Source: Geotalea daltonii FRC-32 (lineage in GTDB: Bacteria > Desulfobacterota > Desulfuromonadia > Geobacterales > Geobacteraceae). Taken from it: DNA of 32,000 nucleotides. The notes below the pieces were generated by a model. It ran no database searches, was not told the origin of the DNA, and saw nothing but the letters and a program-made list of their open reading frames with translations. The DNA lies in contig NC_011979.1 in NCBI RefSeq assembly GCF_000022265.1, positions 3,870,001 to 3,902,000 on the forward strand, given 5' to 3'. Made by a program: the position numbers and the translations under genes. Shown here piece after piece: positions 11,874 through 31,424 of the stretch (within the stretch, counting starts at the first letter, position 1; every line of letters starts with the position of its first letter).

Positions 11874-13253
11874 ATGAAAGAACGCGTGAAAATCCTGCTC
11901 ATAGAAGACGAAAGGCCGAGCCGCGAGGCGCTTTTACTCCTGCTGCAAGGAAACAGCTTCACCATAAAGGGGAGCGGTTCCGGCGCCGAAGGCCTGAAGC
12001 TCATGATGAACGAGCGTTTTGATATCGTCATCACCGATTTGTTCCTTCCCGACATCAGCGGCATCGATATCCTGAAAAAAATAAAAGATACATCCCCACA
12101 CACGGAAGTCATCCTCATTACCGGCCACGCCTCGGCCGAGACCGCTGTCAAGGCCATGAAGGAAGGGGCTTACGACTATATCACCAAGCCACTCAACATC
12201 GATGAACTCCGTATCATCATCGATAAAGCAGTGGAGAAGCACCGGCTCGTCAACGAAAACGTCTACCTGAAAGAACAACTGCGCGACCGGTACGAATTTG
12301 CCAACATCATCGGCAGTTCCGAAGCGATGCAGCAGGTTTTTTCCAGGATGAAAAAGATCATCAAGACCGATTCGACTGTTCTTATCCTCGGCGAATCGGG
12401 TACCGGCAAAGAACTTGTAGCCAAAGCCGTCCATTTCAATGGAGCCCGCCGGGATAAGCCCTTCATAGCCATCAACTGTTCAGCCATCCCGGAAAACCTG
12501 CTGGAAAGCGAGCTCTTCGGCCATACCAGGGGCTCGTTCACCGGTGCCATCAAGGACAAGGTCGGCAAGTTCGAAGCGGCAAATCATGGAACTATATTTC
12601 TCGATGAAATAGGCACCCTGCCCATGCACCTGCAAACCAAACTGCTGCGGGTTTTGCAGGAGCAGGAAGTGGAAAAGGTAGGCTCCAACAAACCCATAAA
12701 GCTTGATGCCAGGGTCATTTCCGCAACCAATGTGGATTTGGAGCAGGAAGTAAAGCGGGGAACTTTTCGTGAAGACCTCTATTACCGGTTGAACGTTATC
12801 CCCATAAACATTCCCCCCTTGCGAGAAAGGACAGAGGACATTTTCCTGCTTGTCAGACACTTTCTGGAGAAGAATTGCCGGGAAATGAAACGCCCGGCCA
12901 TGAGCATCGACAAGGAAGCATATGAAGCCCTTGAATTCTATCAATGGCCGGGAAATGTGCGGGAACTGGAAAATGTCATTGAACGGATTGTTGCACTCAC
13001 GGAAGGGGACCACATCTCCCTGAACGATCTGCCGCCGAACATCGCCAGAGCCTATGGAGAGCAGGAAAGAGCGTCCACCAAGGTTACCGAGGACGGTATA
13101 GATATGGCGAAAACTGTGAATGACATCGAAAGAAAAATGATCAGCGATGCCCTGCTCCTGTCCAAGGGGGTAAAGGCCAGGGCCGCAAACATGCTCAAGC
13201 TGAACCGTACCACCCTTGTGGAAAAGATGAAGAGACTGGGGATGGAGGGGTAA
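11874..13253 (+). CDS. Sigma-54-dependent response regulator (REC + AAA+ + Fis-type HTH; NtrC family)
   Basis: REC: ILLIEDE ... DIVITDLFLPD ... ITKP. AAA+: Walker A GESGTGKE, the GAFTGA-type loop written GSFTGA, and ESELFGH. C-terminal HTH: ARAANMLKLNRTTLVEKMKRLG. Confidence 0.9.
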   Translation: MKERVKILLIEDERPSREALLLLLQGNSFTIKGSGSGAEGLKLMMNERFDIVITDLFLPDISGIDILKKIKDTSPHTEVILITGHASAETAVKAMKEGAYDYITKPLNIDELRIIIDKAVEKHRLVNENVYLKEQLRDRYEFANIIGSSEAMQQVFSRMKKIIKTDSTVLILGESGTGKELVAKAVHFNGARRDKPFIAINCSAIPENLLESELFGHTRGSFTGAIKDKVGKFEAANHGTIFLDEIGTLPMHLQTKLLRVLQEQEVEKVGSNKPIKLDARVISATNVDLEQEVKRGTFREDLYYRLNVIPINIPPLRERTEDIFLLVRHFLEKNCREMKRPAMSIDKEAYEALEFYQWPGNVRELENVIERIVALTEGDHISLNDLPPNIARAYGEQERASTKVTEDGIDMAKTVNDIERKMISDALLLSKGVKARAANMLKLNRTTLVEKMKRLGMEG

Positions 13254-13273
13254 ACATCTGCTGCTGTGCGGAG

Positions 13274-13371
13274 ACAACAAAATTTTTACCTAAACAACAA
13301 AGTTCCTACCAGATCAAAGTTCTTACCCCAATATCACCTCCCCCTTTTGCAGAGACAACGAAGTTCTTACC
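13274..13371 (+). repeat. Four 17-nt direct repeats (consensus ACAACAAAGTTCTTACC) in a 200-bp intergenic region
   Basis: Copies: ACAACAAAATTTTTACC (13274-13290), ACAACAAAGTTCCTACC (13294-13310), AGATCAAAGTTCTTACC (13311-13327), ACAACGAAGTTCTTACC (13355-13371). The first and last copies also share an upstream GAGAC extension. Confidence 0.55.
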
Positions 13372-13453
13372 AAACTCAGCACATAATGGTGTGTGAGCTA
13401 CTCGCGGGACTTAAACCTCAACAATGAGTAGAAATAGTCGTTAAGGATCGAAT

Positions 13454-14841
13454 TTGGTAGATTCATCACGTAAAAGTCCGCAGAAAGTAGTGCGTGAAGT
13501 TATTGAGTTGTGCGCCGACTGCGACACCTGCCGCACGCTTATGGAGAAGGATTGTGTATTCTTTCCTGAGCTTTATCGTCTCTCTGATCGGGAAAAGGAA
13601 GAGGAGATACCGGTTACCGAGGCGGAACTACGAGAGCTAGTTGAACTATGTACCCTCTGCGGCCTCTGTCCGTGCCCCAGGGTGCCCGAGGATCTGGTCA
13701 AGGCCAAGAATGGTTACATGCAGAAGGAAGGCACTCCCATCTCAACCCGGCTAATGATTGATGTGCCAGGGTTGGCCCGCTTATGCGGCACATTTCCACG
13801 ACTATCCAAGGCGTTAACCAACAATAAAGCCATGAGCACGTTGCTCCGGAAAGTCACCCGGACTCATCCTGCACGGCAGATCCCAACAGTTACAGAACCG
13901 GATTTTTTTCAGTGGGCGAAAAAGAAAGGTTTAACTAACAGGCTTCCAGGAAGCCGTAATGTCACCTATTTTGCGGGCTGCACCGCGGGTTATCTCTTCC
14001 CAGAGGTCGCACGGGCAACCGTAGAAGTCCTGGAGCGCAATGGTGAGACTGTCTATGTCCCGCCTCAGCAATGCTGTGGTATGCCGCATTTGGTGGAAGG
14101 AGACTTCGATGGCTCGCTGCAGCGAGCCGGTTTAAACATTGAATCGCTGCTGGAATCCGCCAAGGCAGGGGATAATCTGGTCTGTTCCTGCCCTACCTGT
14201 GGGTACTTCATGAAAGTCTTACTCAAAGAAAGGGCCTATTTTTCAGATGATTATCAAGGATCGATCGGTGCTGGAGAAAACGAGATCAGGGTTCCTGACC
14301 CGAGTAGCGGCAATAACCAGTTCAGAATATTAAATCTGCCTACAAGGATATCCTTAAGGATGATGGCTGTTTTTCTGCTTTTGATCCCATGTCCCGCATC
14401 GGGCTGTCCGATGCGCTTTGTGATGCTGGAGAATATCTGGCACGCCTCCATGCTGAAGGAAGACTTGATACCTTCTTTAACACCATCAATGAACGGATGG
14501 TTTATTATGCACCGTGCCATCAGCGGGAACAGAAGATAGGTACCCCCTACTTGGACCTGCTGGCACTCATTCCCGGATTGAGACTGGAATCGCTGGAGGA
14601 GACGGATTGTTGCGGGATGGGGGGCAATTTCGGCTTCAAGACTCATTTTCACGAAAAATCACTGGCCATAGGAAAGCCTCTAATGCTGAAAATTCGTCAG
14701 CACGCCCCCCAGGCAATAATCACCGATTGCCTCAGTTGTCGATTGCAGTTCAATCATGCACTCCCTTACCCGGTATTTCACCCTATGGAAATTCTGGCGA
14801 GAGCCTATCGAAATGCAGAACGAGGAGGAAACATCTCTTGA
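13454..14841 (+). pseudogene. Fe-S oxidoreductase (2x[4Fe-4S] ferredoxin motifs + two CCG domains; GlpC/HdrD/LutA-like) interrupted by a frameshift near 14317-14345
   Basis: The TTG start at 13454 has AAGGA 6 nt upstream. Frame A gives CADCDTCRTLMEKDC, LCTLCGLCPCP and CCG domain 1 (YFAGCTAGYLFPE ... PPQQCCGMPH ... CSCPTCGYF), then degrades into low-quality sequence. Frame B opens at 14317 and gives YKDILKDDGCFSAFDP ... VYYAPCHQREQ ... ETDCCGMGGNFGFK ... ITDCLSCRLQ (CCG domain 2), ending at 14841. Confidence 0.7.
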
Positions 14842-15030
14842 TCAGTATCAACGAAGCACAACAGAACATTCTTGTACATGTATCGCCTCTGGAAACCGAA
14901 AAGGTGTTTCAGGGGCTGAACAGAGTAACTCCGGAAGACCATATAGCACCCTGGGACATCCCCACTACCGACAACTCCGCCATGGATGGCTTTGCATTCT
15001 CTCACGCAACCATTGAGGAGGGAGCACATG
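14838..15030 (+). pseudogene. moeA: moeA (molybdopterin molybdenumtransferase) 5' remnant, about 64 codons
   Basis: AGGAGG at 14823-14828 precedes a TTG at 14838 that overlaps the upstream stop (TTGA). The translation ISINEAQQNILVHVSPLETEKVFQGLNRVTPEDHIAPWDIPTTDNSAMDGFAFS matches the MoeA N-terminus, including the DNSAMDG(Y/F)A motif. MoeA-like sequence stops near 15030, whereas full-length MoeA is about 400 aa. Confidence 0.65.
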
Positions 15031-15075
15031 AAGCATTTGCTTTAAGCTGCTTCTGTACCGCTGTTCATCGGCTTT

Positions 15076-15867
15076 GTGGAATCGGGCGTTCCCCTTGGCG
15101 TGACCTTATCGTTTCTCATTTCATCGCCCATGGTCAACGAGGTGGCTCTTATCATACTCTGGGGCATGTTCGGCTGGAAGGTAGCCCTCGTCTACATAGG
15201 AACCGGGCTTCTGGTGGCCATCTTTGCCGGGATGATTATCGGCAGACTGAAGATGGAAAAATACGTTCAGGATTATGTCTGGGAGATGCAAGTCGGCAAC
15301 ACGGAAATTGCCGAACAGCGTTGGTCAGAGAGATTTGCTAACGCCCACCAGTACACCGCAGGCCTGTTGAAGAAAATCTGGCCGTTTGTGGTAGTCGGTA
15401 TCGGCATCGGGGCCTTCATTCACGGCTACGTACCCCAGTATTTCCTTGCCCGTTGGGCTGGACGGAACAATCCCTTCGCTGTGCCGGTGGCCGTAGCGCT
15501 TGGCGTGCCGCTCTATTCCAATGCCGCCGGGGTCATTCCCATCGTTCAGGCTCTAACGGCCAAAGGGATGGCGATCGGCACAGTGTTGACCTTCATGATG
15601 GCAGTGACCGCCTTATCATTGCCGGAAGCGATAATCCTCAGTAACGTGCTGAAGAAGCCACTCCTCGCCACCTTCTTTGGAGTTGTGGCGACGGCCATAG
15701 TGGCCGTCGGCTATCTGTTCAATGCCATTTCTCTAAAAACATTTACAGGAGGAAAAGATGAAAGTCGAAGTGCTGGGAACCGGCTGTGCAAAGTGCAAGA
15801 CCCTCTACGAGAATACAAAGAAGGCACTGGAAGAAAGCGGGACAATTGCCGAAGTAGTAAAGGTTGA
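15076..15867 (+). CDS. Permease of the UPF0718/ArsP-like family, 5'-truncated (possibly a pseudogene)
   Basis: The frame opens only at 15046 (AASVPLFIGFVESGVPLGVTLSFLISSPMVNEVALIIL), immediately after an in-frame TAA. Homologues carry roughly 90 more N-terminal residues. A GTG at 15076 is the first possible start. An orphan RBS plus MKHLL-stop mini-ORF sits at 15028-15045 in the same frame. The 3' end reads 110 nt into the next gene, so the native stop may be lost. Confidence 0.55.
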   Translation: MESGVPLGVTLSFLISSPMVNEVALIILWGMFGWKVALVYIGTGLLVAIFAGMIIGRLKMEKYVQDYVWEMQVGNTEIAEQRWSERFANAHQYTAGLLKKIWPFVVVGIGIGAFIHGYVPQYFLARWAGRNNPFAVPVAVALGVPLYSNAAGVIPIVQALTAKGMAIGTVLTFMMAVTALSLPEAIILSNVLKKPLLATFFGVVATAIVAVGYLFNAISLKTFTGGKDESRSAGNRLCKVQDPLREYKEGTGRKRDNCRSSKG

Positions 15868-15988
15868 AGATATTCCTTCGATTATGAAATACGGCGTCAT
15901 GAGCACCCCGGCGCTGGTAGTCGATGGTAAGGTAAAATTTTCCGGCAAGGTGGCATCCGTTGCCGAAATTCTGGAGGTGCTGTCATGA
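15758..15988 (+). CDS. Thioredoxin-fold protein (redox-active disulfide protein 2 / TM0996-MTH895 family)
   Basis: 76 aa, starting MKVEVLGTGCAKCKTLYENTKKAL with a CxxC motif. AGGAGG lies upstream. This family is typically paired with the upstream permease family. Confidence 0.85.
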   Translation: MKVEVLGTGCAKCKTLYENTKKALEESGTIAEVVKVEDIPSIMKYGVMSTPALVVDGKVKFSGKVASVAEILEVLS

Positions 15989-16362
15989 GATTGCTCATGA
16001 TTGCAGCGATGCTGCTGTTAACCACTACCGCTATGGCAGAGATTCCGTCCGCTACTGACGCAGTTATCAGCCAGGCGCTCACTTCCGGCAAACCTACGGT
16101 CATCGACCTGGGAGCTCGCACTTGTATTCCGTGCAAAAAAATGGCCCCCATCCTTGAAGGACTATCCAGAGAGTATCGGAGTAAAGCCTCTGTTCTCTTC
16201 ATTGATGTCCACGAGGACAAGGCCGCTGCCAGTAAGTTCCGCGTCCAGATGATACCTACCCAGATTTTTTTCAATGGCCAGGGGAAAGAAGTGAAGCGCC
16301 ATGTGGGTTTCATGGACAGGACCGACATCGTTAAAGAATTGAAGGCAGCAGGGCTGAAATGA
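15985..16362 (+). CDS. Secreted thioredoxin-family protein
   Basis: Its ATGA start overlaps the previous stop. The signal peptide is MRLLMIAAMLLLTTTAMA. The active site is CIPCKKM, within a thioredoxin-like fold (VIDLGARTCIPC ... IPTQIFF). Confidence 0.85.
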   Translation: MRLLMIAAMLLLTTTAMAEIPSATDAVISQALTSGKPTVIDLGARTCIPCKKMAPILEGLSREYRSKASVLFIDVHEDKAAASKFRVQMIPTQIFFNGQGKEVKRHVGFMDRTDIVKELKAAGLK

Positions 16363-17045
16363 CCTTTCTCGACAATATCGAGCAAATCATCGCCCTCTAC
16401 CCCATCATCGCCTTCGGCGCAGTCTTTCTCGCAGGAGTTCTCTCATCGGCTTCCCCATGCGTGCTGGCGACCATCCCGCTGGTGGTCGGCTTCGTCGGCG
16501 GTTACAGCGATGGCGACCGCATGAAGGCTTTCCGTTATTCCCTGGCCTTCATCCTTGGACTGTCGCTTACCTTTACCGCCTTTGGTGCTGCTGCCGGGCT
16601 TCTGGGAACGATGTTCGGCACATTGGGTGGCCCTTGGTATCTGATTGCCGGAACTATCGCCCTGGTGATGGGGGGACAGATGATGGGTTTTTACGAAATC
16701 AGGCTGCCCGTCAAACGCAACTTCAAGCCAAAGCGCGGTGGAATTATCGGCACATTCCTGCTGGGGCTGTTTTTCGGCATTGTCTCATCTCCATGCGCTA
16801 CGCCGGTGCTTGTCGTACTGCTTACTCTGGTAGCGGGGAAAGGTCAGGTGTTGTATGGCATTGCCCTGCTCTTCTGTTACGCAATCGGACATTGCCTGCT
16901 CATGCTTTTTGCCGGCACCTGCACCGGATTTGTTGAAGGATTCGTCAAGGCGAGGGGGGTGGTTAACTTCTCCGCATGGGCCAAGCGGGTCAGCGGAGGC
17001 GTAGTCGCCCTTATTGGAGGATGGTTTGTCTGGCAAGGCTTTTAG
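16359..17045 (+). CDS. ccdA: Cytochrome c biogenesis / thiol-disulfide transporter CcdA (DsbD-family membrane core)
   Basis: Its ATGA start overlaps the previous stop. It is a polytopic membrane protein with the two conserved Cys-Pro segments SASPCVLATIP and SSPCATPVL. Confidence 0.9.
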   Translation: MTFLDNIEQIIALYPIIAFGAVFLAGVLSSASPCVLATIPLVVGFVGGYSDGDRMKAFRYSLAFILGLSLTFTAFGAAAGLLGTMFGTLGGPWYLIAGTIALVMGGQMMGFYEIRLPVKRNFKPKRGGIIGTFLLGLFFGIVSSPCATPVLVVLLTLVAGKGQVLYGIALLFCYAIGHCLLMLFAGTCTGFVEGFVKARGVVNFSAWAKRVSGGVVALIGGWFVWQGF

Positions 17046-17281
17046 CTGCCATGAATGGGGAATCATATGAGGAAGTTTTTAGTTCCATCGGAAAGTATTT
17101 TTACTGTGCCTGCTCATGCAGGTACAGTATATATCCACTGCACTGGCGAAAGAGACAACCTTCGATGTTTTCTTTCAAGATTTGGCTATGAAACCCGCGC
17201 TGATATGTAGATAGATAGCAAAAAGCACTTTTTTCATGTCTCATTTTTTGAGAAGTTTATGCCCCCTTGGCCGGGGCGGGT

Positions 17282-17845
17282 TCAGTAGCCCCTGGTGCAT
17301 TGGGCGACGATATCCGCTAACTCTGCATCGGACAGATCGTCGTCAAGGCGGATCGCACCATTGGCATCCCGGCGGAGTTCGGTTATTCCCGGATAATGCT
17401 GCTCCAGGTATTTCAACTCCTGGCTTTGCTGTCTGACCGCCCGCAGCAGTCTCCTGTTCTCCGATTCCAGATCGTATTTTTCGATGGCAGAGCGAATAGC
17501 CAGCTTCAACTGGACCTCGTCCCATGGCTTGACGAAAAAGCGGTAGATCTCGCCATTGTTGACCGCCTTCATGGTGGCATCGACACTGGCATGGCCGGTG
17601 AGCATGATGCGCACCGTCTCCGGATAACGCTCTTTTACTACAGACAAGAAAGTGGCTCCGTCCATGCCGGGCATCCTTTCATCGGAAATGACTACTTTGT
17701 ATGATTTTCCTTCCATCAGCTGCAAAGCCGCTTCCCCGCTATTCACCCCTGTAGTTTCGTAGCTTTCATCAATCAGGGCACGTTGAAGTGCTGATATAAC
17801 ATAGGCTTCATCATCCACCAGCATAACATTAGTATGGTGATTCAT
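17282..17845 (-). CDS. Response regulator: REC domain + about 60-aa uncharacterised tail
   Basis: The ATG at 17845 has GGAGG 5 nt upstream; the ORF-track start at 17863 is less likely. REC motifs: VMLVDDE, VISDERMPGMDG, RIMLTGHAS, FFVKPW. Confidence 0.85.
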   Translation of the reverse strand: MNHHTNVMLVDDEAYVISALQRALIDESYETTGVNSGEAALQLMEGKSYKVVISDERMPGMDGATFLSVVKERYPETVRIMLTGHASVDATMKAVNNGEIYRFFVKPWDEVQLKLAIRSAIEKYDLESENRRLLRAVRQQSQELKYLEQHYPGITELRRDANGAIRLDDDLSDAELADIVAQCTRGY

Positions 17846-17869
17846 ACACACCTCCCAAACCATATGGAA

Positions 17870-20290
17870 TTATAAGACGTCTTTAGGACTGCCGCAATTC
17901 GGACAGTTTAACCAACTAGTCTCTAATGAAATTTTGCATGTCTTGCAAAAATTCTGACGGAATGAACCACAATAGGGACAAAACAGAAACTTGGCATCGA
18001 AGTTTCTATGGCAATTATCGCAGCATCTTTCATAAACGAGCTGTGGCCCTATTACGCGGAGCAACTCTTCAAGAGTAGTAAGTCCCAGACGGACCTTTTC
18101 CAGACCGTCTTCAACCAATGTCCGCATCCCGGCAGCACGAGCCATCTCGAATAACTCCGTTTCGCGATACCCTGTGCTTATCATATGCCTGAAATCTTCA
18201 TTCATGACGAAGACTTCATAGATGCCCGTCCGTGACATATATCCAGTCTTATTGCACTGATCACACCCCATACCTTTACTGACACCGTCAGCAAATAAAT
18301 CAGGTGGTACTCGAAGAAGGTCAAGTATGTCGGGATCTGGTGACACTGTCGTTTTGCAATGAGGACAGATTTGTCTAACCAGACGCTGTGCAATTATCCC
18401 TTCCAGTGCAGAACCAATAATGTATGGTTTAACGCCCATATCGATCAGGCGGGTAATGGACGCTACAGAACTATTAGTGTGGAGGGTGGAGAGCACCATG
18501 TGTCCGGTGAGGGATGCCTTGAATGCCACGTCTGCCGTCTCGTGGTCTCGGATCTCTCCCACCAGGATCACATCCGGATCCTGGCGCAAGGTGGCACGCA
18601 GGACCTGGGCAAAAGTCAGCCCTATCTTATCCCGCACCGCCACCTGGTTTGCATCCTCAAGGAAATATTCCACCGGTTCTTCGATAGTTTCAAAGTTTTT
18701 GCTGCTCTCAAGCATGGCGGCAAGAATCGAATAAAGCATTGTTGTTTTGCCGCTACCAGTTGGACCGGTTGTAACAATGACACCTTGTGGCTTCCTTACG
18801 ATCATGGAGATTTTTTTCAGGTCATCTTGAAGTACACCGAGCTCATCGAGGCTCCTGATTGCAGAGCTCTTATCCAGAATCCTCATCACGATCTTCTCAC
18901 CATTTAGTGTCGGTAGTGATGAAACACGCATGTCGACAATGCGAGTGCCGGCTTTAACTGTTATACGCCCGTCCTGTGGCTTGCGGCGTTCGGATATATC
19001 CATTTTGGCAAGAATTTTAAGCCGAGAAATGATTGCAGCATGAAGATCAGCAGGTATCTTGATTTTGCTGTGAAGGAGTCCGTCTATTCTGAACCGAATC
19101 AAGGTATACTTTGTTTTAGCTTCCACATGAATATCACTTGCCCTGAAGCGGATAGCTTCCGAAATGACGGCATTGACTATACGGATAACCGGCGGAACCT
19201 CAGACGAGCCTACCAGTTCTTGAATACTCACATCTTTTTCATCTTCTTCTATTACAATGTCAATTTCATCAAGTGGCTCTATATCTATACATTCATCAAT
19301 GTCATCAATATTATTTTCACCGTAAATTCTCTTCAAAAGTGCAACAATTTCTGTGCTAGCACTCAACAAAGCTGTTACCTTCAACCCTGTCATTGTAGCA
19401 ATGTTGTCTATTTTATAGATATCCGATGGATCCGCCATTGCCATAGTCAGCTGACGGCCATCCATTTTAATGGGAATTATCCGATTTCTTTCACAAAGAT
19501 CCCGGGGCAGGAACCTCGCTGCAGTCTGGTTAACTTCATACTCGCGCAAATCCACATACTCAATATTGAGGTTTTCCTGCAGAGCCTTTATTATTTTAGC
19601 CTCACTGGTATATCTCAATCTGACTATTGCTTCACTGAGAAATTCTCCCTTTTCCATATTTTCTAGTGCATTTTCAAGCTCTTCCTGTTTAATAACTCCA
19701 CTTCTGACCAAAATGCTTCCCATCATACCGTGGTTTTCATCAAAGAGGCTGCTATAGTTCTTCAGTTTGAGCTGTTGAGTACGAGCTAAATCTTTTAGCC
19801 TTTTGTTCTCCTGAATTAAAGTGTACTGCTGGAGAGCTAAGCTTACCGTCAGACGCAGATCTTCATCATTCCAGGGTTTGGTAATAAATTTGTATACAGC
19901 TCCATCTTTTACAGCACCCATTATGGAATTGACATCCGCATGACCTGTCAACATGATGCGTATTGTCTGAGGCGAAAGTTCCTTGATAGCTTTCAGAAGT
20001 TCTGCACCTGTCATACCTGGCATACGATGATCCGACACAACCAGATGAATCGGCTCGGCGTCAAACATGGATAGGGCTTTTTCCCCATTCGATGCAGTAA
20101 GAATGTTGTAGTTTTCTTCCATGAAAATACGCCGCATTGCAGACAACACACCATCTTCGTCATCCACAAAAAGAATGGTAAATTTTTCTACACCTCCAGG
20201 TTGGCCGGAAGAAACACTTACATCTCCCATGGGCTCATTGATTCCATCGGTATTAGTAGTATTGCGGAAAAGGTTGGAATACTTAGCCAT
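17870..20290 (-). CDS. REC-fused GspE/PilB-family (T2SS-E/T4P) ATPase with MshEN-like N-domain and C-terminal double zinc ribbon
   Basis: 806 aa. REC: ILFVDDE, VVSDHRMPGMTG, RIMLTGHAD, FITKPW. T2SSE_N-like: MGSILVRSGVIKQEELENAL. ATPase core: Walker A GPTGSGKT, Walker B DPDVILVGEIRD, His box TGHMVLSTLHTN, and tetracysteine CPHC ... CDQC. An extra tail carries four CxxC pairs (CDNC, CPYC, CKTC, CPNC) at nt 17873-18040. Confidence 0.9.
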   Translation of the reverse strand: MAKYSNLFRNTTNTDGINEPMGDVSVSSGQPGGVEKFTILFVDDEDGVLSAMRRIFMEENYNILTASNGEKALSMFDAEPIHLVVSDHRMPGMTGAELLKAIKELSPQTIRIMLTGHADVNSIMGAVKDGAVYKFITKPWNDEDLRLTVSLALQQYTLIQENKRLKDLARTQQLKLKNYSSLFDENHGMMGSILVRSGVIKQEELENALENMEKGEFLSEAIVRLRYTSEAKIIKALQENLNIEYVDLREYEVNQTAARFLPRDLCERNRIIPIKMDGRQLTMAMADPSDIYKIDNIATMTGLKVTALLSASTEIVALLKRIYGENNIDDIDECIDIEPLDEIDIVIEEDEKDVSIQELVGSSEVPPVIRIVNAVISEAIRFRASDIHVEAKTKYTLIRFRIDGLLHSKIKIPADLHAAIISRLKILAKMDISERRKPQDGRITVKAGTRIVDMRVSSLPTLNGEKIVMRILDKSSAIRSLDELGVLQDDLKKISMIVRKPQGVIVTTGPTGSGKTTMLYSILAAMLESSKNFETIEEPVEYFLEDANQVAVRDKIGLTFAQVLRATLRQDPDVILVGEIRDHETADVAFKASLTGHMVLSTLHTNSSVASITRLIDMGVKPYIIGSALEGIIAQRLVRQICPHCKTTVSPDPDILDLLRVPPDLFADGVSKGMGCDQCNKTGYMSRTGIYEVFVMNEDFRHMISTGYRETELFEMARAAGMRTLVEDGLEKVRLGLTTLEELLRVIGPQLVYERCCDNCHRNFDAKFLFCPYCGSFRQNFCKTCKISLETSWLNCPNCGSPKDVL

Positions 20291-20293
20291 TAT

Positions 20294-21586
20294 TTATTCC
20301 TTATTCAGAGGAATTGTAATAATAAAATCAGCCCCACCATCAGCTGCATCTGCAACTGATACAGTTCCCCCAAGTTTCAAAACGCTGTCATACACCACGG
20401 CCAGCCCCATACCTTTACCTGCACCCACTTCACGAGTAGTAAAGAAAGGTTCAAACACCCGGCCGCGATGCTCTGGAAGAATTCCTGGTCCATTATCAGC
20501 AATACTGATTCTGATTCGTTTCCCATCCCAGGCTGTAGCCAGAGTTACACGGAGGCCATCCCCACGGGATTGGATTGCATTTTGTATAATATTGAGGAAA
20601 ACTTGACTAAGTACTGCCGCTTGAGCCTTGATAACAGGCAATGGTTGAAGATCACGTACAATCTCCACTTTGTTTTTTAATTGATGACAAAGAACACTTA
20701 ATGTCAGTTCAATTTCTCTATTCACATCAATGTCAATAAGCCCAACTTCATCGACATGAGAAAAACCTTTTAAATCAGCCACTATGTTCATAACACGTTC
20801 TGCGCCGGTCAACGTTTGGGATAGGAGATCACCAACATCTGTACACACCATGTCTATTTTTAATTCTTGCCATTTTTGTTCTGTCTGTTCGACTAAAGTG
20901 GAGGTTGTCGAACCAATCTTGTTCAGATCTCTGCAGAAGAATAACATTGCACTGAGGCGATTGACATATTTTTGCAAGGTGTGAAGATTGCTTATGATGA
21001 AGCCAAGGGGATTGTTTATCTCGTGAGCTATTCCTGCTGCCAGTTGCCCTATGGCTGCCATTTTTTCTTGCTGAAGTAGATGCGAATGAGCTTTTTTCAA
21101 CTCGAATGTTCTCTCATTCACTCGTTTTTCAAGGCTCTCTGCCAAATCTCGATACCGTGCTTCTGATTGACTTAGCTGTTGATTTATTTCAACAAGTTGC
21201 TCAAAGGATGTATTGACTACAGTAGTATGAATTTCTGTTGTAAGAATTCTTTTAAGGTTATTTGAAATCACAGTATTAAGCGCAACAGCCAATAGTTTAC
21301 CAACTGCAAAAAGCAAAGGCTTTGAATCCTGATCTCCAAAAACATTTATAGTTCCTACCGGTTCCCCTTCCAATTTCAGGGGGAAAATAACTAAAGGTTC
21401 CGCCAGGAATGGACGCTGGGTGGCACCCCAAATCTCCATCCCGTCTGGGTCCAGTATGGTCACATTATCGGCACCTGCCTGTACGGCACCTTCAAGAAGA
21501 GGAATAACCTCAGTATCTATTAAAACGTCATGCAGGCGCTTCTCATCGCCGACTACATATGAAATTCCTTCCTGTGAAGGCAGCAT
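20294..21586 (-). CDS. Cytoplasmic sensor histidine kinase (small GAF-like or unknown N-domain + coiled coil + HisKA + HATPase_c)
   Basis: H-box: QQEKMAAIGQLAAGIAHEINNPLGF. N-box: FLNIIQNAIQ. G-boxes: DNGPGI and GAGKGMGLAV. The start is either the ATG at 21586 (AGGAG upstream) or the TTG at 21595 (TTGA overlap). No TM segment is evident. Confidence 0.85.
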   Translation of the reverse strand: MLPSQEGISYVVGDEKRLHDVLIDTEVIPLLEGAVQAGADNVTILDPDGMEIWGATQRPFLAEPLVIFPLKLEGEPVGTINVFGDQDSKPLLFAVGKLLAVALNTVISNNLKRILTTEIHTTVVNTSFEQLVEINQQLSQSEARYRDLAESLEKRVNERTFELKKAHSHLLQQEKMAAIGQLAAGIAHEINNPLGFIISNLHTLQKYVNRLSAMLFFCRDLNKIGSTTSTLVEQTEQKWQELKIDMVCTDVGDLLSQTLTGAERVMNIVADLKGFSHVDEVGLIDIDVNREIELTLSVLCHQLKNKVEIVRDLQPLPVIKAQAAVLSQVFLNIIQNAIQSRGDGLRVTLATAWDGKRIRISIADNGPGILPEHRGRVFEPFFTTREVGAGKGMGLAVVYDSVLKLGGTVSVADAADGGADFIITIPLNKE

Positions 21587-21591
21587 CTGTA

Positions 21592-22257
21592 TCAATCTCC
21601 TTCCTGCTCAGCAACATTGACCATGCGATTCACAAATGCTCTTTTGTCAAGACCATGGTCGGACGCGATTCTGTAGCGATCATCAATTCTGTCGTAAAGG
21701 CGTTCGACCAGCAGTGAAAATGTTTCTACTACTCCCAATCCTTTAATAGCTGCTGCCATAGTCACGGGAATTCCGGTAGGCTCCCAAGTATGAAGAATAT
21801 CCTCTTCTGCAACTATTGCCGATAAATCTCGCTTGTTAAATTGAATCACAAGCGGCACTGAATCAACATCCAACCCTACCAAAGCTAAATTGTTTTCCAA
21901 GCTTTCAAAGCTGGCAAGGTTGTTCGTGCTTTGCGAAAGCTGGGAATCAGCGATAAAAGCAACGCCATCAGCTCTCTGTAATACAGCCTTACGTGTGGCG
22001 TCATGTCTTACTTGGCCTGGAACTGTGTAAACTTTGACTTTTATTTTTAACCCGCTGGGTGCAACAATGAAAAAAGGCAGAAGATCAAAATAGATTGTTC
22101 TATCGTCAGTTGTATCCAAGACCATCAGATCTCCTCGACCTTCATGTTTTAACAATTCATGCAATTGAAGAAGATTGGTTGTTTTCCCAGACATGGCAGG
22201 GCCATAATAAACGAGTTTCAGAACCATGCGCCGCTCTTTTTCATTAAATTCAATCAT
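21592..22257 (-). CDS. MglA-family Ras-like small GTPase
   Basis: MIEFNEKERRMVLKLVYYGPAMSGKTTNL aligns residue-for-residue with the MglA N-terminus (P-loop GxxxxGKT). Also present are TDDRTIYFDLLP (intrinsic Arg-finger position), YTVPGQ (the MglA-type G3 with catalytic Gln), and NKRD (G4). An alternative start at 22320 (ATGA overlap) would add 21 residues. Confidence 0.8.
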   Translation of the reverse strand: MIEFNEKERRMVLKLVYYGPAMSGKTTNLLQLHELLKHEGRGDLMVLDTTDDRTIYFDLLPFFIVAPSGLKIKVKVYTVPGQVRHDATRKAVLQRADGVAFIADSQLSQSTNNLASFESLENNLALVGLDVDSVPLVIQFNKRDLSAIVAEEDILHTWEPTGIPVTMAAAIKGLGVVETFSLLVERLYDRIDDRYRIASDHGLDKRAFVNRMVNVAEQEGD

Positions 22258-22316
22258 GATGGGAATCCTGTTCCTTGAATCAAGAAGTTGAGTCTGTAGA
22301 TTACAAAAGTAAATAC

Positions 22317-23627
22317 TCATTGAGAAACGAAAACAAACACTCCCCCCTCGGGAGGATCTACACTGTAATATCGCTTCAGAGCGTGTATTTTAGCCTCATC
22401 CAATGTCGCCCCCTTGTTTAGAAGCAAAAGCCCCGTGCCGCTTATCACTTCTCTGGCCAGGACCATGCCTGTACATAAGTCTTTTGGTGAAATTTCTTGC
22501 ACAACCATCGAACGATCTGTAAGACCAATATAATAACTAGTGGATACTTCCTGAACTGTTGGCAGCAGCTCTGGATCAAAAAAGCTTTCTGCTTTCTCCT
22601 TTAGGCTTTTCATTATTGATTCGATTGAAACCGAAGCATCCATTCTTGAGATAGTCGTATCCACGAAATCTGCAATGGCGATTATACGTGCTCCAATCGG
22701 TATGTCCTTCCCGGATAGCCCATCTGGAAATCCTGTTCCATCATAGAGTTCATGATGGTGACGAATTATCTGGCCTGCTGAGCGTAAACCTTCGACCACA
22801 TCAACAACTGCCTGTCCCCGCACCGGATGCCGGGCATACTCTGCACGCTCCTCATCATCAAGCAACTCATACCGCATTCTTAGTATGCCTGGTTCTATAC
22901 CTATTTTCCCTATATCATGCAAAAGTGCAGCGACTCTTATAGTTTCGATTTCGTCTTCTGTTAACTGTAATTTGCGAGCGGACTCTTCGGCAACAGCGGA
23001 AACATTGTTAGAATGATTCTTTGCCAGTGAATCTAAAAGGCCGATAACGCTGGAAAAGGCAAGAATGGTATTCTGCCAGTTCCTGGTGGCAATCTCGCCA
23101 CTCAGGCGCAATTCCTCCATCTGCTGCCTGATCCGGGTCGTCTGTTCCATTACGCGGCTCTTCAGCCCGTTGTTCCACTCGTGCAGCTCGGCATTCTGCT
23201 GCTGTACCAGTGCGGAAAGGCGCTTGTTCTCCATGGTCATCCGGTAGCGCTGGACGCCTTCTGTCAGGGTCTGCACAAGCATGCCGTCATCCCACGGTTT
23301 GGTGATGTAGCAAGAAGCCCCACCCTTGTTGATTGCGTCCATGGTGGCATTGATGTCGGCATAACCGGTCAATACCATGCGTATCGCTTCCGGAGCCAGG
23401 CTCTTTGCCTGTTGCAGGAATTCCGCTCCCGTCATTCCCGGCATTCGCTGGTCAGAAAGGATCAACGCCACATCCGGGTGCGCCTGCAGAACGCTGAGCC
23501 CTTCGCTTCCCGAGCCGGCAGTCAGTACATTGATGTCGTTCTCCTCCATCAGCAGGCGGACAATGGCCCGGAGGATGTTTTCTTCGTCGTCGACGACAAG
23601 TATGGTGCTTGTGGTTTGGGCTACCAT
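22317..23627 (-). CDS. Response regulator with HD-GYP (c-di-GMP phosphodiesterase-type) output and about 130-aa C-terminal extension
   Basis: REC: ILVVDDE, ILSDQRMPGMTG, RMVLTGYAD, YITKPW. After a coiled coil, the HD-GYP domain has LLHDIGKIG and HHHELYDGTGFPDGL, where GFP replaces GYP. The extra C-terminal region ends in DLCTGMVLAREVISGTGLLLLNKGATLDEAKIHALKRY. Confidence 0.9.
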   Translation of the reverse strand: MVAQTTSTILVVDDEENILRAIVRLLMEENDINVLTAGSGSEGLSVLQAHPDVALILSDQRMPGMTGAEFLQQAKSLAPEAIRMVLTGYADINATMDAINKGGASCYITKPWDDGMLVQTLTEGVQRYRMTMENKRLSALVQQQNAELHEWNNGLKSRVMEQTTRIRQQMEELRLSGEIATRNWQNTILAFSSVIGLLDSLAKNHSNNVSAVAEESARKLQLTEDEIETIRVAALLHDIGKIGIEPGILRMRYELLDDEERAEYARHPVRGQAVVDVVEGLRSAGQIIRHHHELYDGTGFPDGLSGKDIPIGARIIAIADFVDTTISRMDASVSIESIMKSLKEKAESFFDPELLPTVQEVSTSYYIGLTDRSMVVQEISPKDLCTGMVLAREVISGTGLLLLNKGATLDEAKIHALKRYYSVDPPEGGVFVFVSQ

Positions 23628-23633
23628 TGTTCT

Positions 23634-24596
23634 TTATCCTTCTGAGCCTGTTTTTTCCGTGTCCAATGTTTGGAAAAACATGTCTACCAGCCGTCCTTCC
23701 AGGTGGTTTCCTCGCATATCTCCCATGAGCTTGTGCGCCTTTGCGAAACTCATGGCAGGCTTATAAGGTCGATCCGTAGTCAGGGCGTCGAAAACGTCGG
23801 CAACGGCCACTATCCGTGCCTCCAGAGGGATCGAGACCCCTTTCAGACCGAAGGGATACCCGGTTCCATCGAAGCGCTCATGGTGATGGCGGATAATGTT
23901 GATCAAAGTAGGAGATAAGTTGGCCTGCTGGGCCACGTTGGCTCCCCACTCGGGATGCTTCCTGACAACGATCATTTCCTGCTCCGAAAGCATGCAGGTA
24001 GAATTGAGGATTGTCTCCGGCACGCCGATCTTGCCGCAGTCGTGCAGCCAGCTGCCGTAACGAATCTCCCGGGATGTGGTCGAGGGAAGCTTCAAAAGCT
24101 CGCATATCCTTAAAGCGTGGTCGGCAACGCGGTTACAGTGCCCGCGGGTGTAATGGTCTTTCAGCTCGATGGTCTCGGCCAGAGAATGGAGAACACCTTC
24201 ATCATGTTGTCTGAGGGCGTCCCAGATACGGAAACGGGCAACCCCTTCGCTGACCGCCTGGTATAGCTCCTCATTTCGCCAGGGCTTGACGATGAATCTG
24301 AAGACCTCGCCACTGTTGATCGCCTGCAGCGCCGTATCCAGATCGGCATGGGCTGTCAGCAGACATTTGACGGTCTCCGGTGATTCCTCCTTGATCCGTG
24401 TCAACAGTTCGATTCCTTTCATTTCAGGCATCATATTGTCCGAAACGATAACGGCAAACTTTTTACTGCGACACAGTTCCAGTGCCTCTATTGGGCTACG
24501 GGTGAAAACGGTTTCCAGGCCGCTTTCCGAGAAAACCCGCTGCAGGGCGTTGAGCACATGTTGTTCATCATCAACAAAAAGGATAGGTTCGCTCAT
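23634..24596 (-). CDS. Response regulator with HD-GYP output (RpfG-like)
   Basis: REC: ILFVDDE, IVSDNMMPEMKG, FIVKPW. HD-GYP: GHCNRVADHA, WLHDCGKIGVP, HHHERFDGTGYPFGLKG. Confidence 0.9.
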   Translation of the reverse strand: MSEPILFVDDEQHVLNALQRVFSESGLETVFTRSPIEALELCRSKKFAVIVSDNMMPEMKGIELLTRIKEESPETVKCLLTAHADLDTALQAINSGEVFRFIVKPWRNEELYQAVSEGVARFRIWDALRQHDEGVLHSLAETIELKDHYTRGHCNRVADHALRICELLKLPSTTSREIRYGSWLHDCGKIGVPETILNSTCMLSEQEMIVVRKHPEWGANVAQQANLSPTLINIIRHHHERFDGTGYPFGLKGVSIPLEARIVAVADVFDALTTDRPYKPAMSFAKAHKLMGDMRGNHLEGRLVDMFFQTLDTEKTGSEG

Positions 24597-25396
24597 ACTG
24601 AAGACTCTCCTGTCAGGACTATGACGATGGCAGGTGTTGCACCCTGATCCAATGCGGTCGCATCAGCCTGCAACGTCCTGCCGTCGGCGGCAATGCCGGT
24701 CCAGCTTTTCTCTCCGGCCAAAACCCGGCCGATAAACCCGCAGATATCAGCAGGGAGTACATGGGCCATGGGCCGACTCAGGCATTCGTCCCTATCCCTC
24801 CCCAGCAGCAGGGCGGCAGCAGTGTTCATTTGCATGACCGTATCGGCGAGGACCGACAGCACGCCGAAGGGAAGGCTGTCCAATATTATGAAAGGATCAA
24901 GGCCGTGGGGGCCACCCGCCACCAAAACTTGCTGTTGATCAACGGCACCGCTCAAAAGCTCCAGAGCCAGGGACTTGACATGGAGTTCTTCGGACAACTT
25001 TGCGTTTTCCCGATGAAGGGCGAACATCTCCACTGCCTTGGCAATGGTCATCTTCAGCTCATCTTCGTTCCAGGGCTTGGGGATGAACCGGTAGATCTCC
25101 CCCTCGTTGATCGCCGCAACGACAGCAGCGGTATCCGCATAACCGGAGAGGACGATGCGGATTGTTTCCGGATGGAGGCTGCACGCCTTCTTGAGGAATT
25201 CCACCCCGTTCATGCCGGGCATGCGGTAGTCCGAGATGATCACATGGAAATTTTCGCTACTGGAGAGCTTTTCCAATCCCTCCTCCCCGGAAGAGGCGGT
25301 GATGATCTCGTAGTCCTCATCGATAAACATTCTTTCAATTGCGCGGAGCACGTTTCGTTCGTCATCGACGCAAAGAATTCTCACGGTTTCATCCAT
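24593..25396 (-). CDS. Response regulator: REC + PAS-like C-terminal domain
   Basis: REC: ILCVDDE, IISDYRMPGMNG, RIVLSGYAD, FIPKPW. The C-terminal part (ILDSLPFGVLSVLADTVMQMNTAAALLLGRDRDECL) is PAS-like. An ATGA overlap joins it to the downstream gene. Confidence 0.8.
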   Translation of the reverse strand: MDETVRILCVDDERNVLRAIERMFIDEDYEIITASSGEEGLEKLSSSENFHVIISDYRMPGMNGVEFLKKACSLHPETIRIVLSGYADTAAVVAAINEGEIYRFIPKPWNEDELKMTIAKAVEMFALHRENAKLSEELHVKSLALELLSGAVDQQQVLVAGGPHGLDPFIILDSLPFGVLSVLADTVMQMNTAAALLLGRDRDECLSRPMAHVLPADICGFIGRVLAGEKSWTGIAADGRTLQADATALDQGATPAIVIVLTGESSV

Positions 25397-25399
25397 TCG

Positions 25400-28300
25400 C
25401 TACTCCACAGGAATTCGGATAGTGAAGGTCGTTCCCTGTCCCGGTTCACTGGTAACATCTATAGTCCCTTTATGTTTGTTGATGATGTCGAAACTGATGG
25501 AAAGACCTAGTCCAGTTCCTTTTCCCACTTCCTTGGTTGTGAAGAATGGATCGAAAATCTTGCCGATCACCTCCGGCGGAATCCCGCAACCGGTGTCGCT
25601 GATGGCAATGCAGGCGGTCTTGTCCTCGCACCAGGTCGCAATCCTGATTTCCCCACGCTCCTTGATGGCATGGGCGGCATTGATCAGCAGATTGAGGAAT
25701 ACCTGGTTCAGCTGCTGGGGAAAGCATTTGACCTGGGGCAGTTCGCCGTAATCCCGGACCAGCGTCACCTTGTATTTCAACTCATTCCAGGCGACCATGA
25801 TAGTACTTTCCAGGCATTCGTGAAGGTCCATATACTTGCTTTCCGCATTGTCGATCCGGGAAAAGGATTTCAGGTTCTGGACGATATGTTTGACCCGCTC
25901 GGCCCCCTCTGTCGACTCGGACAACAGGCTCCGAGCATCATTGAGTATGTAGTCCAGCTTGCATCTGGCGCTCAGTTCGGCGATCTCCGTCCGGACCTCG
26001 GCCGGGGCGGTGTCGTTAATGGCTGCGCTCTGGGCGGCAATAATTCCCTGAAGCCGCTCCAGGTACTTGCCCATTGTCCCCAGATTGCTTGAAATGAAAC
26101 CGATGGGGTTGTTGATCTCATGGGCAACACCCGCCGCAAGCTGGCCGAGGGAAGCCATCTTTTCATTCTGGAGCAATTGTTTGTGGGTGGTTTTCAGATC
26201 CTCGTAAGTCCGAAACAACTCCTGGGAAACCAGCTTGATCTGGGTCAGGTCATGGAGAGTAATGACTGCCCCGTCAGCATCCCCGTAAGGGTAGCTGCTC
26301 AGATCGAACCAGCGGTTGGTTGGCTCATGATGGAACTCGATCTTCCTGCTGTCCCGGTCGAAGGTAAAACCGAGGGAGGCGCAAAGATCGGGCCATTTGC
26401 TGGAAATGAGGCCGGTATAGGAAATGCCGCAGAATTCCATGAACGACTTGTTGCAGCGTCTGACATGATCCTGGCCATCTACGAGTATGATCATGTCGTC
26501 GATGCAGTCCATTGTCTTTTCCCACTCCCGCTTGCCCTGCTCCACCTGCCTGAACAGGTTGCGGAGTTCTTCATGTTTCACCACCAGCTCAGCCTGCTGT
26601 TTTCTCAGAGCCCGCTCGTTATTTCTCAGTTCGGTAATGTCCTCCTCGGCAATAACGAGATTAGTTATTGTCCCGTCCGGGTCCGTCACCGGCATCACGG
26701 TGACAGTCTGCCAAAAGGCGGTTCCATCTTTCTTTCGGCTCATGAGTTGCACCTGCCAGGCATCTCCTGCAGTTAGGGTCTGCCACACTTGATGGTACAG
26801 CTGCGGCGATTGCTGCTCCGGATCGAGAACCGGCGGTTTCCGCCCCAGTATCTCCTCTTTGCTGTATCCGCTGATTTCGCAGAATTTCCGGTTCACATAC
26901 TGGATCGAGCCTTCCAAATCGGTAATGATGATTGAGCTGGCGCTTTGATTGATGGCCTCGGAAAAGAGCCTGAGGCTGTCCTCCGCTGTCTTACGCTCGG
27001 TGATGTCGTAAATGGTTTCTACGACGGCCACCTTTTTGCCGTCACTGAAGATGGGGGCGGCATCTAAGATCAGATAGCGTTTTTCTCCGTTGGGCATTTC
27101 AAACCACTGTTCGCAGCGAATGGATTTCTTGACAAAGGGATCTTTGAAACAGTGCTGGTAACAGCGCTCGATGTCCCCATTGAGACCATCCAGAACCAGG
27201 TCGCTCAGGGTCGGTCGTTGATCCCCATAAAAAGGCTGCCATTGCAGGCTGGTCCCCAGGACATCGGCGGCGGCCTTTCCCGTCAGTTCCACCATGGCAC
27301 GGTTCCAGGCAATGACCTTATGATCGGCATCGATGACGAAAACCGGCGTAAGAATGCTATCGACGATACTTTCGCTGAAGACTCTCTGGTCATTAAGTCT
27401 CTGCTCCAGGATGATCCGGTGGGTGACGTCCCTGAAACTGGCGCGGATTGCTATGCGGCTGCCGTCCGATGCGACAACGGTATGACAGACATGGTTGAAC
27501 CACCTGGTCTCTCCGTTTTTGGTGATGATCCTGATGTCGAAGCTTCTACCGCATCCTTCTTCGTCCGGCAGTTCACAGTGATGGAGCCATGCGTCCAGGT
27601 CCTCGGGATGAACGATTTTTTCGAGAAAGCGGGGATTACCGTGGAACTCCTCTTCCGTGTAGCCGGTCAGCTTGAGGCAGTTGCCAGACACATATCGTAC
27701 GGACTTGTCCGGATTGAACAGGATTGCCAGTTCCGAAGTGAACTCGGCGAGAATCTTGTAAAGCTCCCGGTTCTCGTGGAGCAATTCCTGCTTTTCGTCC
27801 ATCTGGAGAATCATCTCGTTGAAGGCTGCAGCCAGGGAACCCAACTCGTCGCGGGTATCGATATGAATAAACCTTCCTTCTCCCCGTTTTGCCGACAGTT
27901 TCTTCACATGGGCAGTCAGCCTTACTACGGGGCCGACGATTTTTCCCGTCACGAAATAGGCAATAACCAGGGAGGCAACAAAAGCCATGCAGAACATGGC
28001 AGCCATGAAGTAGTTGATCCGACTTATGGGTGCATAGGCCTCGGAAAGAGGATAATGAATGGCTAGTATCCAGTCGGCATTGACCAGGGGTTTGAAGGAT
28101 GAAATCCCTTTGGCGCCCATACTGTTCGTATTCTCCATGCTGCCGGTAAAGTTGCTTTCGATGGCAGAATCGAGCCCAGGGTTTGCGCCCGACAGAATAG
28201 TCTCGGTAATGCGTCGCTGGTTTGGATGCATGATCAGCATGCGCTTCCTGTTGACCAGGTAGATGAAACCCTTATTGCCGATCCGTAGTTTGTTCAGATC

Positions 28301-31413: not shown

Positions 31414-31424
31414 AACCAGCCTGC

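Follow-up and report, generated by a model that had tools for sequence, protein, structure and literature searches.

A receiver-bearing PilB-like ATPase with a double zinc-ribbon tail in a conserved GTPase and two-component gene module of Geotalea daltonii

The operon described here, from Geotalea daltonii FRC-32, contains a gene that joins five parts in one chain: a receiver (REC) domain, a linker made of helix, an MshEN domain in its complete form, an ATPase of the PilB/GspE type and a double zinc ribbon (DZR). The window that we analyzed is a stretch of 32,000 nucleotides (nt; contig NC_011979.1, positions 3,870,001 to 3,902,000 of a 4,304,501-bp replicon), and coordinates are given as positions within it. 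Nine genes run on the minus strand from 31413 down to 17282, the ATPase gene being the eighth, and from 24596 down to 17282 they are parted by only 4-7 nt or overlap by 4 nt (Table 1). Scans of 16900-32000 for promoters and terminators stayed at chance level (19 versus 14.8 and 15 versus 14.4, respectively) and leave the ends of the operon undefined.

Table 1. Parts of the ATPase gene and the other genes of its operon, as positions in the window.
Feature	Position	Strand	Details
REC-helical linker-MshEN-T2SSE ATPase-DZR gene	17870..20290	-	ACM21847.1 / WP_012648575.1
Conserved N-terminal peptide MxKYSxLF, residues 1-9	20264..20290	-	L7 and F8 invariant in 59 sequences
Receiver (REC), residues 39-148	19847..20176	-	Pfam Response_reg (PF00072), 87.9 bits; phospho-acceptor D87
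Long alpha-helical linker	19733..19846	-	model helix at residues 142-183; joins receiver to MshEN
MshEN_N four-helix bundle, motifs at residues 189-212 and 217-240	19571..19726	-	fold kept, cyclic di-GMP motif degenerate
MshEN_C (T2SSE_N) subdomain, residues 241-325	19316..19570	-	Pfam MshEN (PF05157), 72.3 bits; ADPSD at 286-290 invariant
Acidic flexible linker, residues 326-365	19196..19315	-	conserved EPLDEIDIV
PilB/GspE-type ATPase (N2D and CTD), residues 366-745	18056..19195	-	Pfam T2SSE, 431.2 bits (cut-off 24.9)
Double zinc ribbon (DZR), residues 757-800	17891..18022	-	four CxxC pairs; Pfam DZR (PF12773)
dCache-HAMP-HisKA-HATPase sensor kinase, 653 residues	29452..31413	-	
dCache-HAMP-PAS(x3)-HisKA-HATPase sensor kinase, 1162 residues	25400..28888	-	
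REC-PAS response regulator, 267 residues	24593..25396	-	
REC-HD-GYP response regulator 1, 320 residues	23634..24596	-	canonical HD and GYP
REC-HD-GYP response regulator 2, 436 residues	22317..23627	-	GFP for GYP (HHELYDGTGFP)
MglA-family small GTPase	21592..22320	-	E 1.8e-41 to M. xanthus MglA (6HJH, 6H17)
Cytoplasmic histidine kinase, 433 residues	20294..21595	-	alpha/beta domain at residues 20-88, helix 89-226, HisKA, HATPase
Stand-alone REC protein, 193 residues	17282..17863	-	7 nt downstream of the ATPase gene

The ATPase gene is a single unbroken open reading frame (ORF) with an ATG start and a stop codon at 17870-17872, and it encodes a protein of 806 amino acids (UniProt B9M659). A first-pass annotation, made from the sequence alone, had divided the product into a receiver, an MshEN-like region, a PilB-type ATPase and a zinc-ribbon tail; all four exist where they were placed, and every motif and coordinate checks out against the ORF (residues 189-240 correspond to nt 19571-19726, residues 751-806 to nt 17873-18040). 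The start codon is backed by the conserved N-terminal peptide and the stop codon by in-frame conservation of the tail. An AlphaFold2 model built with 59 homologs contains a confident receiver, a long helix, the four MshEN_N helices and the ATPase, with the tail at a predicted local distance difference test score (pLDDT) of about 71-79. Searched with Foldseek, the full-length model matched only the cores of PilB, PilF, GspE and PilT, with the first three on top, and gave no match for the zinc tail.

The same annotation had called this architecture unusual, which is not borne out. The GenBank record of ACM21847.1 already names the four-part architecture, under the term 'PulE', and Supplementary Table 4 of Wang et al. 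2016 lists "REC - MshEN - T2SSE" with Gmet_3473 as the example and does not mention the zinc-ribbon tail (PMC5013675). The Gmet_3473 segment in Supplementary Fig. 3c of that paper, GLFDEDKSM.LGSIL.EAGVI..., matches SLFDENHGMMGSILVRSGVI... of ACM21847.1, and the G. metallireducens protein is, judging by this match, plainly an ortholog. The domain architecture, being already in GenBank and in the 2016 table, is not a discovery. More than 120 clusters in the protein database (90% identity), 64-100% identical to ACM21847.1 over at least 95% of its length, all carry REC, MshEN and T2SSE. A genome scan that took one genome per species yielded 532 relatives, which were seeded by a sequence pattern and may include other PilB-like genes; full-length orthology was verified for the best 80 loci only, and our linkage counts rest on these. 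The gene is full-length in 79 of the 80, with L069 cut by a contig end at residue 38, and identities range from 58 to 98%. By record titles the hosts, many of them anaerobes, belong to the Geobacteraceae, Desulfuromonadaceae, Nitrospirota/Thermodesulfovibrionia, Syntrophales, Desulfomonilia, Desulfobulbia and Deferrimicrobium. The G. sulfurreducens ortholog has 825 residues and the same tail, and its module was seen in strain record AP017912.1; the locus tag in strain PCA could not be resolved, and GSU2609, 40% identical to PilB, is a candidate only. No full-length relative was found on plasmids by tblastn, and there is no sign of a plasmid-borne module. The first-pass annotation had allowed that the architecture would be ordinary if it were common and already assigned to a known pilus or secretion locus; it is common, but no assignment to such a locus was found. 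What appears to be undescribed so far is the conserved gene module, together with the broader group of PilB-like ATPases that end in a DZR.

The receiver keeps every residue that phosphorylation requires. D43, D44, D87, T115 and K138 are invariant in all of the 77 full-length orthologs that we aligned for residue counts (Walker A, H604, the Arg fingers and the N-terminal peptide were counted in a separate alignment of 59 sequences), so that a functional phospho-acceptor, on which the earlier idea of phosphorylation-gated ATPase activity hinged, is present. By its residues the receiver is predicted to be phosphorylation-competent, and because these residues are invariant and a co-conserved histidine kinase adjoins the gene upstream, it is plausible that phosphorylation gates the ATPase. 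Receiver and linker together (residues 39-181) score 186 bits against NF053512, a family of HD-GYP response regulators whose N-terminal module they match, and the five REC-plus-linker modules encoded in the operon share 36-48% mutual identity. Between the receiver and the N-terminal peptide, which may be a docking motif, residues 11-35 are variable and modeled with low confidence.

The motor portion carries the catalytic motifs of its family, an Asp box included. Arg fingers lie at residues 435-442, Walker A (GPTGSGKT) at 509-516, the Walker B region DPDVILVGEIRD at 571-582 with catalytic E579, the His box TGHMVLSTLHTN at 595-606, and a tetracysteine site in CPHC (642-645) and CDQC (676-679). 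E579, H597 of the His box and the four cysteines (C642, C645, C676, C679) are invariant in the 77 orthologs, as are Walker A, H604 and the Arg fingers in the 59-sequence alignment, and the core motifs listed by the first-pass annotation are thus both present and conserved. The Pfam score, above its cut-off, and the catalytic motifs place the protein in the T2SSE superfamily (PF00437), while the tetracysteine site and the N-terminal MshEN domain are those of the extension-type PilB/GspE subgroup. Residues 189-746 align end to end with G. metallireducens PilB (5TSG/6OLJ, E about 1e-135; 5TSG, E 3e-135), and also with G. sulfurreducens PilB (5ZFR), M. xanthus PilB (3JC8) and T. thermophilus PilF. 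The EPLDEIDIV stretch of the acidic linker was considered as a distinguishing feature and dropped, since canonical Geobacter PilB has it too. On these grounds ACM21847.1 is predicted to be a catalytically competent ATPase of the PilB/GspE family.

The MshEN-like region had been confined to residues 189-240; it is indeed found there, but the domain is complete and runs through residue 325. That it is no motif remnant follows from the end-to-end alignment with full-length PilB. In the model its helices span residues 190-196, 202-210, 218-224 and 230-241 and are followed by a beta/alpha unit, with pLDDT of 80-90, and the domain aligns with the MshEN structure 5HTL at E 3.5e-11.

The tail carries four CxxC pairs (CDNC 757-760, CPYC 771-774, CKTC 782-785 and CPNC 796-799), read earlier as two additional zinc ribbons. 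The DZR profile agrees: its score of 25.0 bits in the whole protein lies below the gathering score of 27.3 and rises to 33.7 bits when the 58-residue tail is scanned separately. All eight cysteines are kept in 76-77 of the 77 orthologs, which speaks against a tail arising from a mis-called stop or a frameshift, and P772, G775, W793, P797 and G800 are conserved too. To place the tail in a wider context we searched 1.84 billion representative proteins at 50% identity and scanned ten of the matches with Pfam. Five forms were found: REC-MshEN-T2SSE-DZR, REC-MshEN-T2SSE (P0130), MshEN-T2SSE-DZR, (MshEN)4-T2SSE-DZR, and the permuted MshEN-T2SSE-DZR-REC. The DZR therefore looks, by its distribution, to be a feature of a broad PilB-like ATPase clade that is older than the fusion, with receivers attached at either end. 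Since the DZR occurs with and without REC, the tail is unlikely to be part of a phospho-switch, and its role would be intrinsic to the DZR clade. It is most likely a zinc-stabilized module for partner docking; most of its conserved residues other than cysteine have hydrophobic or aromatic side chains (F768, F770, F777, W793), not basic ones, which weakly favors protein docking over nucleic-acid binding, the other role that the first-pass annotation had suggested. The permuted form, with its C-terminal receiver, was seen in P0143 (locus L085) and, going by lengths and two-stretch matches, may recur in many of the clusters made at 50% identity.

The gene neighborhood, the most informative part of the analysis, is conserved as well. 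The histidine kinase, whose gene lies 4 nt upstream of the ATPase gene, is encoded directly upstream of it in 67 of 71 loci, an MglA-like GTPase is present in 62 of 68, a REC-HD-GYP gene in 57 of 63, and a gene that starts with a REC domain follows the ATPase in 59 of 74, REC-HD-GYP in some. All-against-all clustering of the ORFs from the 80 loci returned no further family in more than nine loci. The GTPase-kinase-ATPase trio is kept in clusters that are only 45-47% identical (L086, L088) and in G. sulfurreducens. Because no other family recurs and only one locus holds a prepilin-like gene, the module is self-contained and lies outside pil and gsp clusters. The ATPase is the only non-signaling output of the conserved operon.

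Its signaling components have features of their own. Across 55 orthologs the GTPase does not vary in its P-loop, its Arg finger (R74), T75, its catalytic Gln (Q103) or NKRD; its homology to MglA, with Arg finger and Gln kept, places it in the MglA family, and an extension of about 35 residues past the MglA fold bears conserved Y209, D213, R215, L218, H222, G223 and F229. Against NCBIfam NF038348 'T2SS_HK' the kinase core scores 201 bits, below the cut-off of 450, and this match is limited to the C-terminal 280 residues. For its residues 20-88, which hold a conserved LEGEPVG, Pfam gave only a sub-threshold GAF_2 (E 0.17), and Foldseek matched the DHp-CA cores of the model and nothing for this segment. 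Roadblock domains have a helix between strands 2 and 3. The kinase segment is ordered alpha, four strands, alpha, with no helix between strands 2 and 3, an observation that is no proper Roadblock test. No Pfam match was obtained for the C-terminal region of about 110 residues in REC-HD-GYP regulator 2, and no family match for the tail of about 60 residues in the stand-alone REC protein.

Several side observations concern these genes. The listed ORF of the GTPase carries about 21 additional residues at its N-terminus, and M22 (MIEFNEKERR...) fits an MglA start better; the G. sulfurreducens ortholog has 229 residues. Over 19000-23000 the G+C content is 0.40-0.44, against 0.50-0.56 in the flanks; this low stretch comprises the kinase and GTPase genes together with the 5' half of that for the ATPase and the greater part of REC-HD-GYP 2. 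Nitrospirota orthologs are 64-66% identical to ACM21847.1, equal to many from Geobacteraceae. Low G+C content and this similarity hint at horizontal transfer of the core module. In the metagenomic locus L086 (47% identical) the module lies 3 kb from a secretin gene (region 12455-16406). After the secretin gene come four genes whose products begin in prepilin fashion, on the pattern G|F(T/S)(L/M)(V/I)E (GFTMVE, GFSLVE, HSFIEF, GFTLVE), and one for an F5/8-type-C protein; the cluster shows neither an ATPase nor a platform gene.

We consider it moderately likely that ACM21847.1 is a phospho-gated, PilB-like hexameric motor that forms the output of a G-protein-coupled two-component module. The state of the GTPase, the small N-terminal sensor domain of the kinase, or both would set kinase activity, and the kinase would phosphorylate the paralogous receivers of the operon, including Asp87 of the ATPase protein. 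Phosphorylation of that receiver would act through the helical linker, either by repositioning MshEN (N1) or by changing oligomerization or hexamer assembly, and the motor would thereby be turned on or off at a platform, for type IV pili or type II secretion, whose genes lie elsewhere in the genome. The HD-GYP regulators would lower cyclic di-GMP (c-di-GMP) in parallel. In Geotalea two periplasmic-sensing dCache kinases are encoded upstream. More tentative is a role of the ATPase, in trans, at a filament machine; because no structural pilus or secretion gene is linked, this is a step that we purely infer. Rather unlikely is the broader proposal that GTPase, kinase and REC-PilB-DZR protein make up an undescribed, horizontally spread 'G-protein-coupled two-component motor switch'; the GTPase state would control the kinase, the kinase would directly phosphorylate the REC-PilB-DZR protein, and this protein, as an alternative extension motor, would vie with canonical PilB/GspE for a pilus or pseudopilus platform.

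Several findings weigh against a phospho-gated filament motor. The protein falls below both NCBIfam equivalog cut-offs (PilB TIGR02538, 564.3 bits against 675.65; GspE TIGR02533, 541.1 bits against 630.25), and neither name, PilB or GspE, should therefore be given to it. The linkage to pilC, pilM-Q and pilin genes that is expected of PilB was not found in the 80 loci: no pilC/gspF platform, pilM/gspL, pilin or secretin gene is a recurrent neighbor, and a pilin-like gene with a prepilin-type N-terminus occurs in only one locus. A gene for MglB, the Roadblock/LC7 GTPase-activating protein, is absent from the operon in the window and from the recurrent neighbor families, and the kinase's N-terminal domain matched no family, which leaves the coupling of GTPase to kinase hypothetical. 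The pairing of kinase and receiver is read solely from adjacency and co-conservation, in an operon that encodes three kinases alongside five receivers. With a mean pLDDT of 72 and a predicted TM score of 0.42, the AlphaFold2 model is of no more than moderate quality and is uninformative on contacts between domains. A search of open-access full text and bioRxiv, including Gmet_3473, GSU2609 and pilus ATPases in connection with DZR, turned up no functional work on a member of the family.

An alternative that partly overlaps with phospho-gating is that the main switch is non-canonical binding of c-di-GMP, or of a related nucleotide, by the MshEN domain, integrated with phosphorylation, and that the neighboring REC-HD-GYP phosphodiesterases control the local pool. 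The completeness and good conservation of the MshEN fold and the co-conservation of the REC-HD-GYP genes speak for it. The canonical motif consists of two copies of RLGxx(L/V/I)(L/V/I)xxG(L/V/I)(L/V/I)xxxxLxxxLxxQ. Aligned to known MshEN domains, ACM21847.1 has MMGSILVRSGVIKQEELENALENM as motif I, which deviates at positions 1 and 24, and FLSEAIVRLRYTSEAKIIKALQEN as motif II, which deviates at positions 1, 3, 10 and 12; the degenerate residues include M189 and M212 in the former and F217, S219 and R226 in the latter. Position 1 is basic in only one of the 77 orthologs in motif I and in none in motif II, being replaced by M/V/I and by F, respectively; the motif II Gly, Ser219 in ACM21847.1, is retained in 32, and the terminal position of motif I is mostly Lys or Arg, with Gln not conserved. 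Most hydrophobic motif positions pass in the orthologs, and 70 of the 77 have an Arg at 187, two residues before the canonical one, where ACM21847.1 has His. A relaxed form of the pattern of Wang et al. matched 0 of the 77, a blunt test, since the first motif of known proteins (PilB of G. metallireducens and of M. xanthus, and PilF) does not pass it either; for this reason we abandoned it as a classifier in favor of per-position counts.

Published data on sequence changes bear on both sides. In MshE the G11I substitution abolishes c-di-GMP binding, hydrophobic changes cost more than 10-fold in affinity, and G40E and F48K are named as crucial for natural loss of binding, yet an R1M variant with three further changes still binds with a dissociation constant of 2.6 uM (Wang et al., PMC5013675). 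The first-pass annotation had thought c-di-GMP binding possible but unsupported, pointing to Met in place of Arg and Gln. Its direction was right, in that the Arg is absent family-wide; the argument from Met was weak, given that the R1M variant binds. The changes of most concern in ACM21847.1 are, by their positions, S219 (the G40 position) and R226 (the helix-turn Gly), and not the Met. Gmet_3473 is itself listed among the MshEN architectures of that study, whereas XpsE shows that MshEN homologs can lose binding. We would give c-di-GMP binding about a one-in-three chance in the family and a smaller one in ACM21847.1, and a motor gated chiefly by such a nucleotide appears somewhat unlikely.

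Further from phospho-gated filament assembly is the possibility that ACM21847.1 is no filament motor at all and instead a signaling or remodeling ATPase acting on another substrate, or a phospho- or nucleotide-dependent scaffold; for example, the zinc tail could bind nucleic acid or protein and the hexamer translocate or remodel the bound partner. The want of linked pilus and secretion genes in the 80 loci and the scores below both equivalog cut-offs are compatible with this. So are the orphan state of the gene for the one REC-less, DZR-bearing relative that we inspected (L083), and the signaling role proposed for PilB in exopolysaccharide control in M. xanthus (PMC5544727). However, the full PilB layout is kept, acidic linker included, and N1 (MshEN_C) is strongly conserved with its invariant ADPSD, a region that in relatives contacts the stator, according to a review (PMC11656802). 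The conserved non-cysteine residues of the tail are for the most part not of the basic kind, and one distant member, in L086, lies 3 kb from a secretin gene and four prepilin-like genes, so we judge this possibility improbable.

That the gene is an artefact, whether a mis-called stop, a frameshift fusion or a decaying paralog, is refuted: the one truncated tail among the 77 orthologs, in a draft genome of Geotalea toluenoxydans JCM 15764 (L001), stands against a full-length frame kept in the other 76 across several phyla with invariant catalytic and cysteine residues. In this draft the tail is frameshifted after the second CxxC pair (at about 12300-12367, giving the 788-residue WP_243688639.1), probably through a sequencing error; the newer record of the species, GAB7028337.1, has the full 806 residues.

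If the motor switch exists as proposed, ACM21847.1 would be the first case of a response regulator that is at the same time a motor for secretion or pili. Such motors are known to be regulated either by separate partner proteins (PilZ/FimX, SgmX, PilG/PilH) or by c-di-GMP that binds to MshEN. The word 'receiver' is absent from a 2024 review of PilB regulation (PMC11656802). A motor with its own receiver and a linked MglA-type GTPase and kinase would provide a direct two-component route to filament assembly or secretion, and pilus- or pseudopilus-dependent export in Geobacter could then be under motor-switch control. The roles of PilB paralogs in Geobacter pilus and cytochrome export are debated (PMC8557921). 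The proposed route is biochemically tractable, and G. sulfurreducens and G. metallireducens, both amenable to genetics, have orthologs.

Apart from the operon, two further spots in the window deserve mention. On the plus strand, ORFs at 13454-14539 and 14389-14841 overlap in different frames, and each is Cys-rich and of the CCG type, the second with CCGMGGNFGF; the pair looks like one Fe-S oxidoreductase with two CCG domains split by a frameshift, a programmed event or a sequencing event. The ArsP-type permease ORF at 15076-15867 covers only profile positions 78-293 of 294 and has an overlapping ORF in another frame upstream (14514-15341), which may reflect N-terminal truncation, a frameshift or a mis-called start.

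Comparison with known systems shows where the protein and its module stand. With PilB and PilF (5TSG/6OLJ, 5ZFR, 3JC8) the protein shares MshEN/N1, acidic linker, N2D, a CTD with Walker A/B, Asp box, His box and Arg fingers, and the zinc site at about 41-46% core identity, and it differs from them by its N-terminal receiver and linker, its C-terminal DZR, the score below the PilB cut-off and the absence of the Arg residues of the c-di-GMP motif. Canonical pilB, GSU1491, lies in the pil cluster (PMC8557921), whereas the ACM21847.1 gene is not found with pilT, pilC or pilM-Q. GspE/EpsE/PulE proteins belong to the same ATPase family and have the zinc site (TIGR02533, 541 bits, and the 'PulE' of the GenBank name), but ACM21847.1 lies below the cut-off, has no linked gsp genes and carries an MshEN_N bundle typical of PilB/MshE-type proteins. 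V. cholerae MshE (5HTL, PMC5013675) has a homologous MshEN, with two 24-residue motifs and a 5-residue spacer; in the family described here the leading Arg is replaced (M/V/I and F) and the terminal Gln is not conserved, and ACM21847.1 has Ser for the Gly of motif II and Arg for the turn Gly. RpfG-type REC-HD-GYP regulators resemble the protein at its other end, the REC and linker being 38-47% identical to those of the two HD-GYP regulators of the operon, while their output is a phosphodiesterase and not a PilB-type ATPase.

The module as a whole recalls two G-protein systems. In M. xanthus an MglA-family GTPase is likewise genetically tied to a PilB-type ATPase: SofG positions PilB and PilT (PMC4316618), and MglA activates type IV pili via SgmX (PMC7668184). 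The Geotalea GTPase, in contrast, is a paralog that bears a conserved C-terminal extension; its gene stands between those for response regulators and that for a histidine kinase, and the module has no MglB. Canonical Geobacter MglA/MglB (GSU0099/GSU0098) are encoded apart from it, an adaptor resembling SgmX was not seen, and the ATPase itself bears the receiver. Actinobacterial conservons consist of the kinase CvnA, the roadblock protein CvnB, CvnC and the GTPase CvnD (PMC4316618), and in them, as in the Geotalea module, an MglA-family GTPase stands beside a histidine kinase, which suggests G-protein-coupled two-component signaling. The Geotalea module differs in having neither Roadblock/MglB nor CvnC, in a kinase that is cytoplasmic and not membrane-bound, in a GTPase that keeps the Group-1-type Arg finger and Gln, and in the phyla in which it occurs. 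Because MglB/Roadblock and CvnC are absent, the module belongs to neither the MglA/MglB nor the conservon system.

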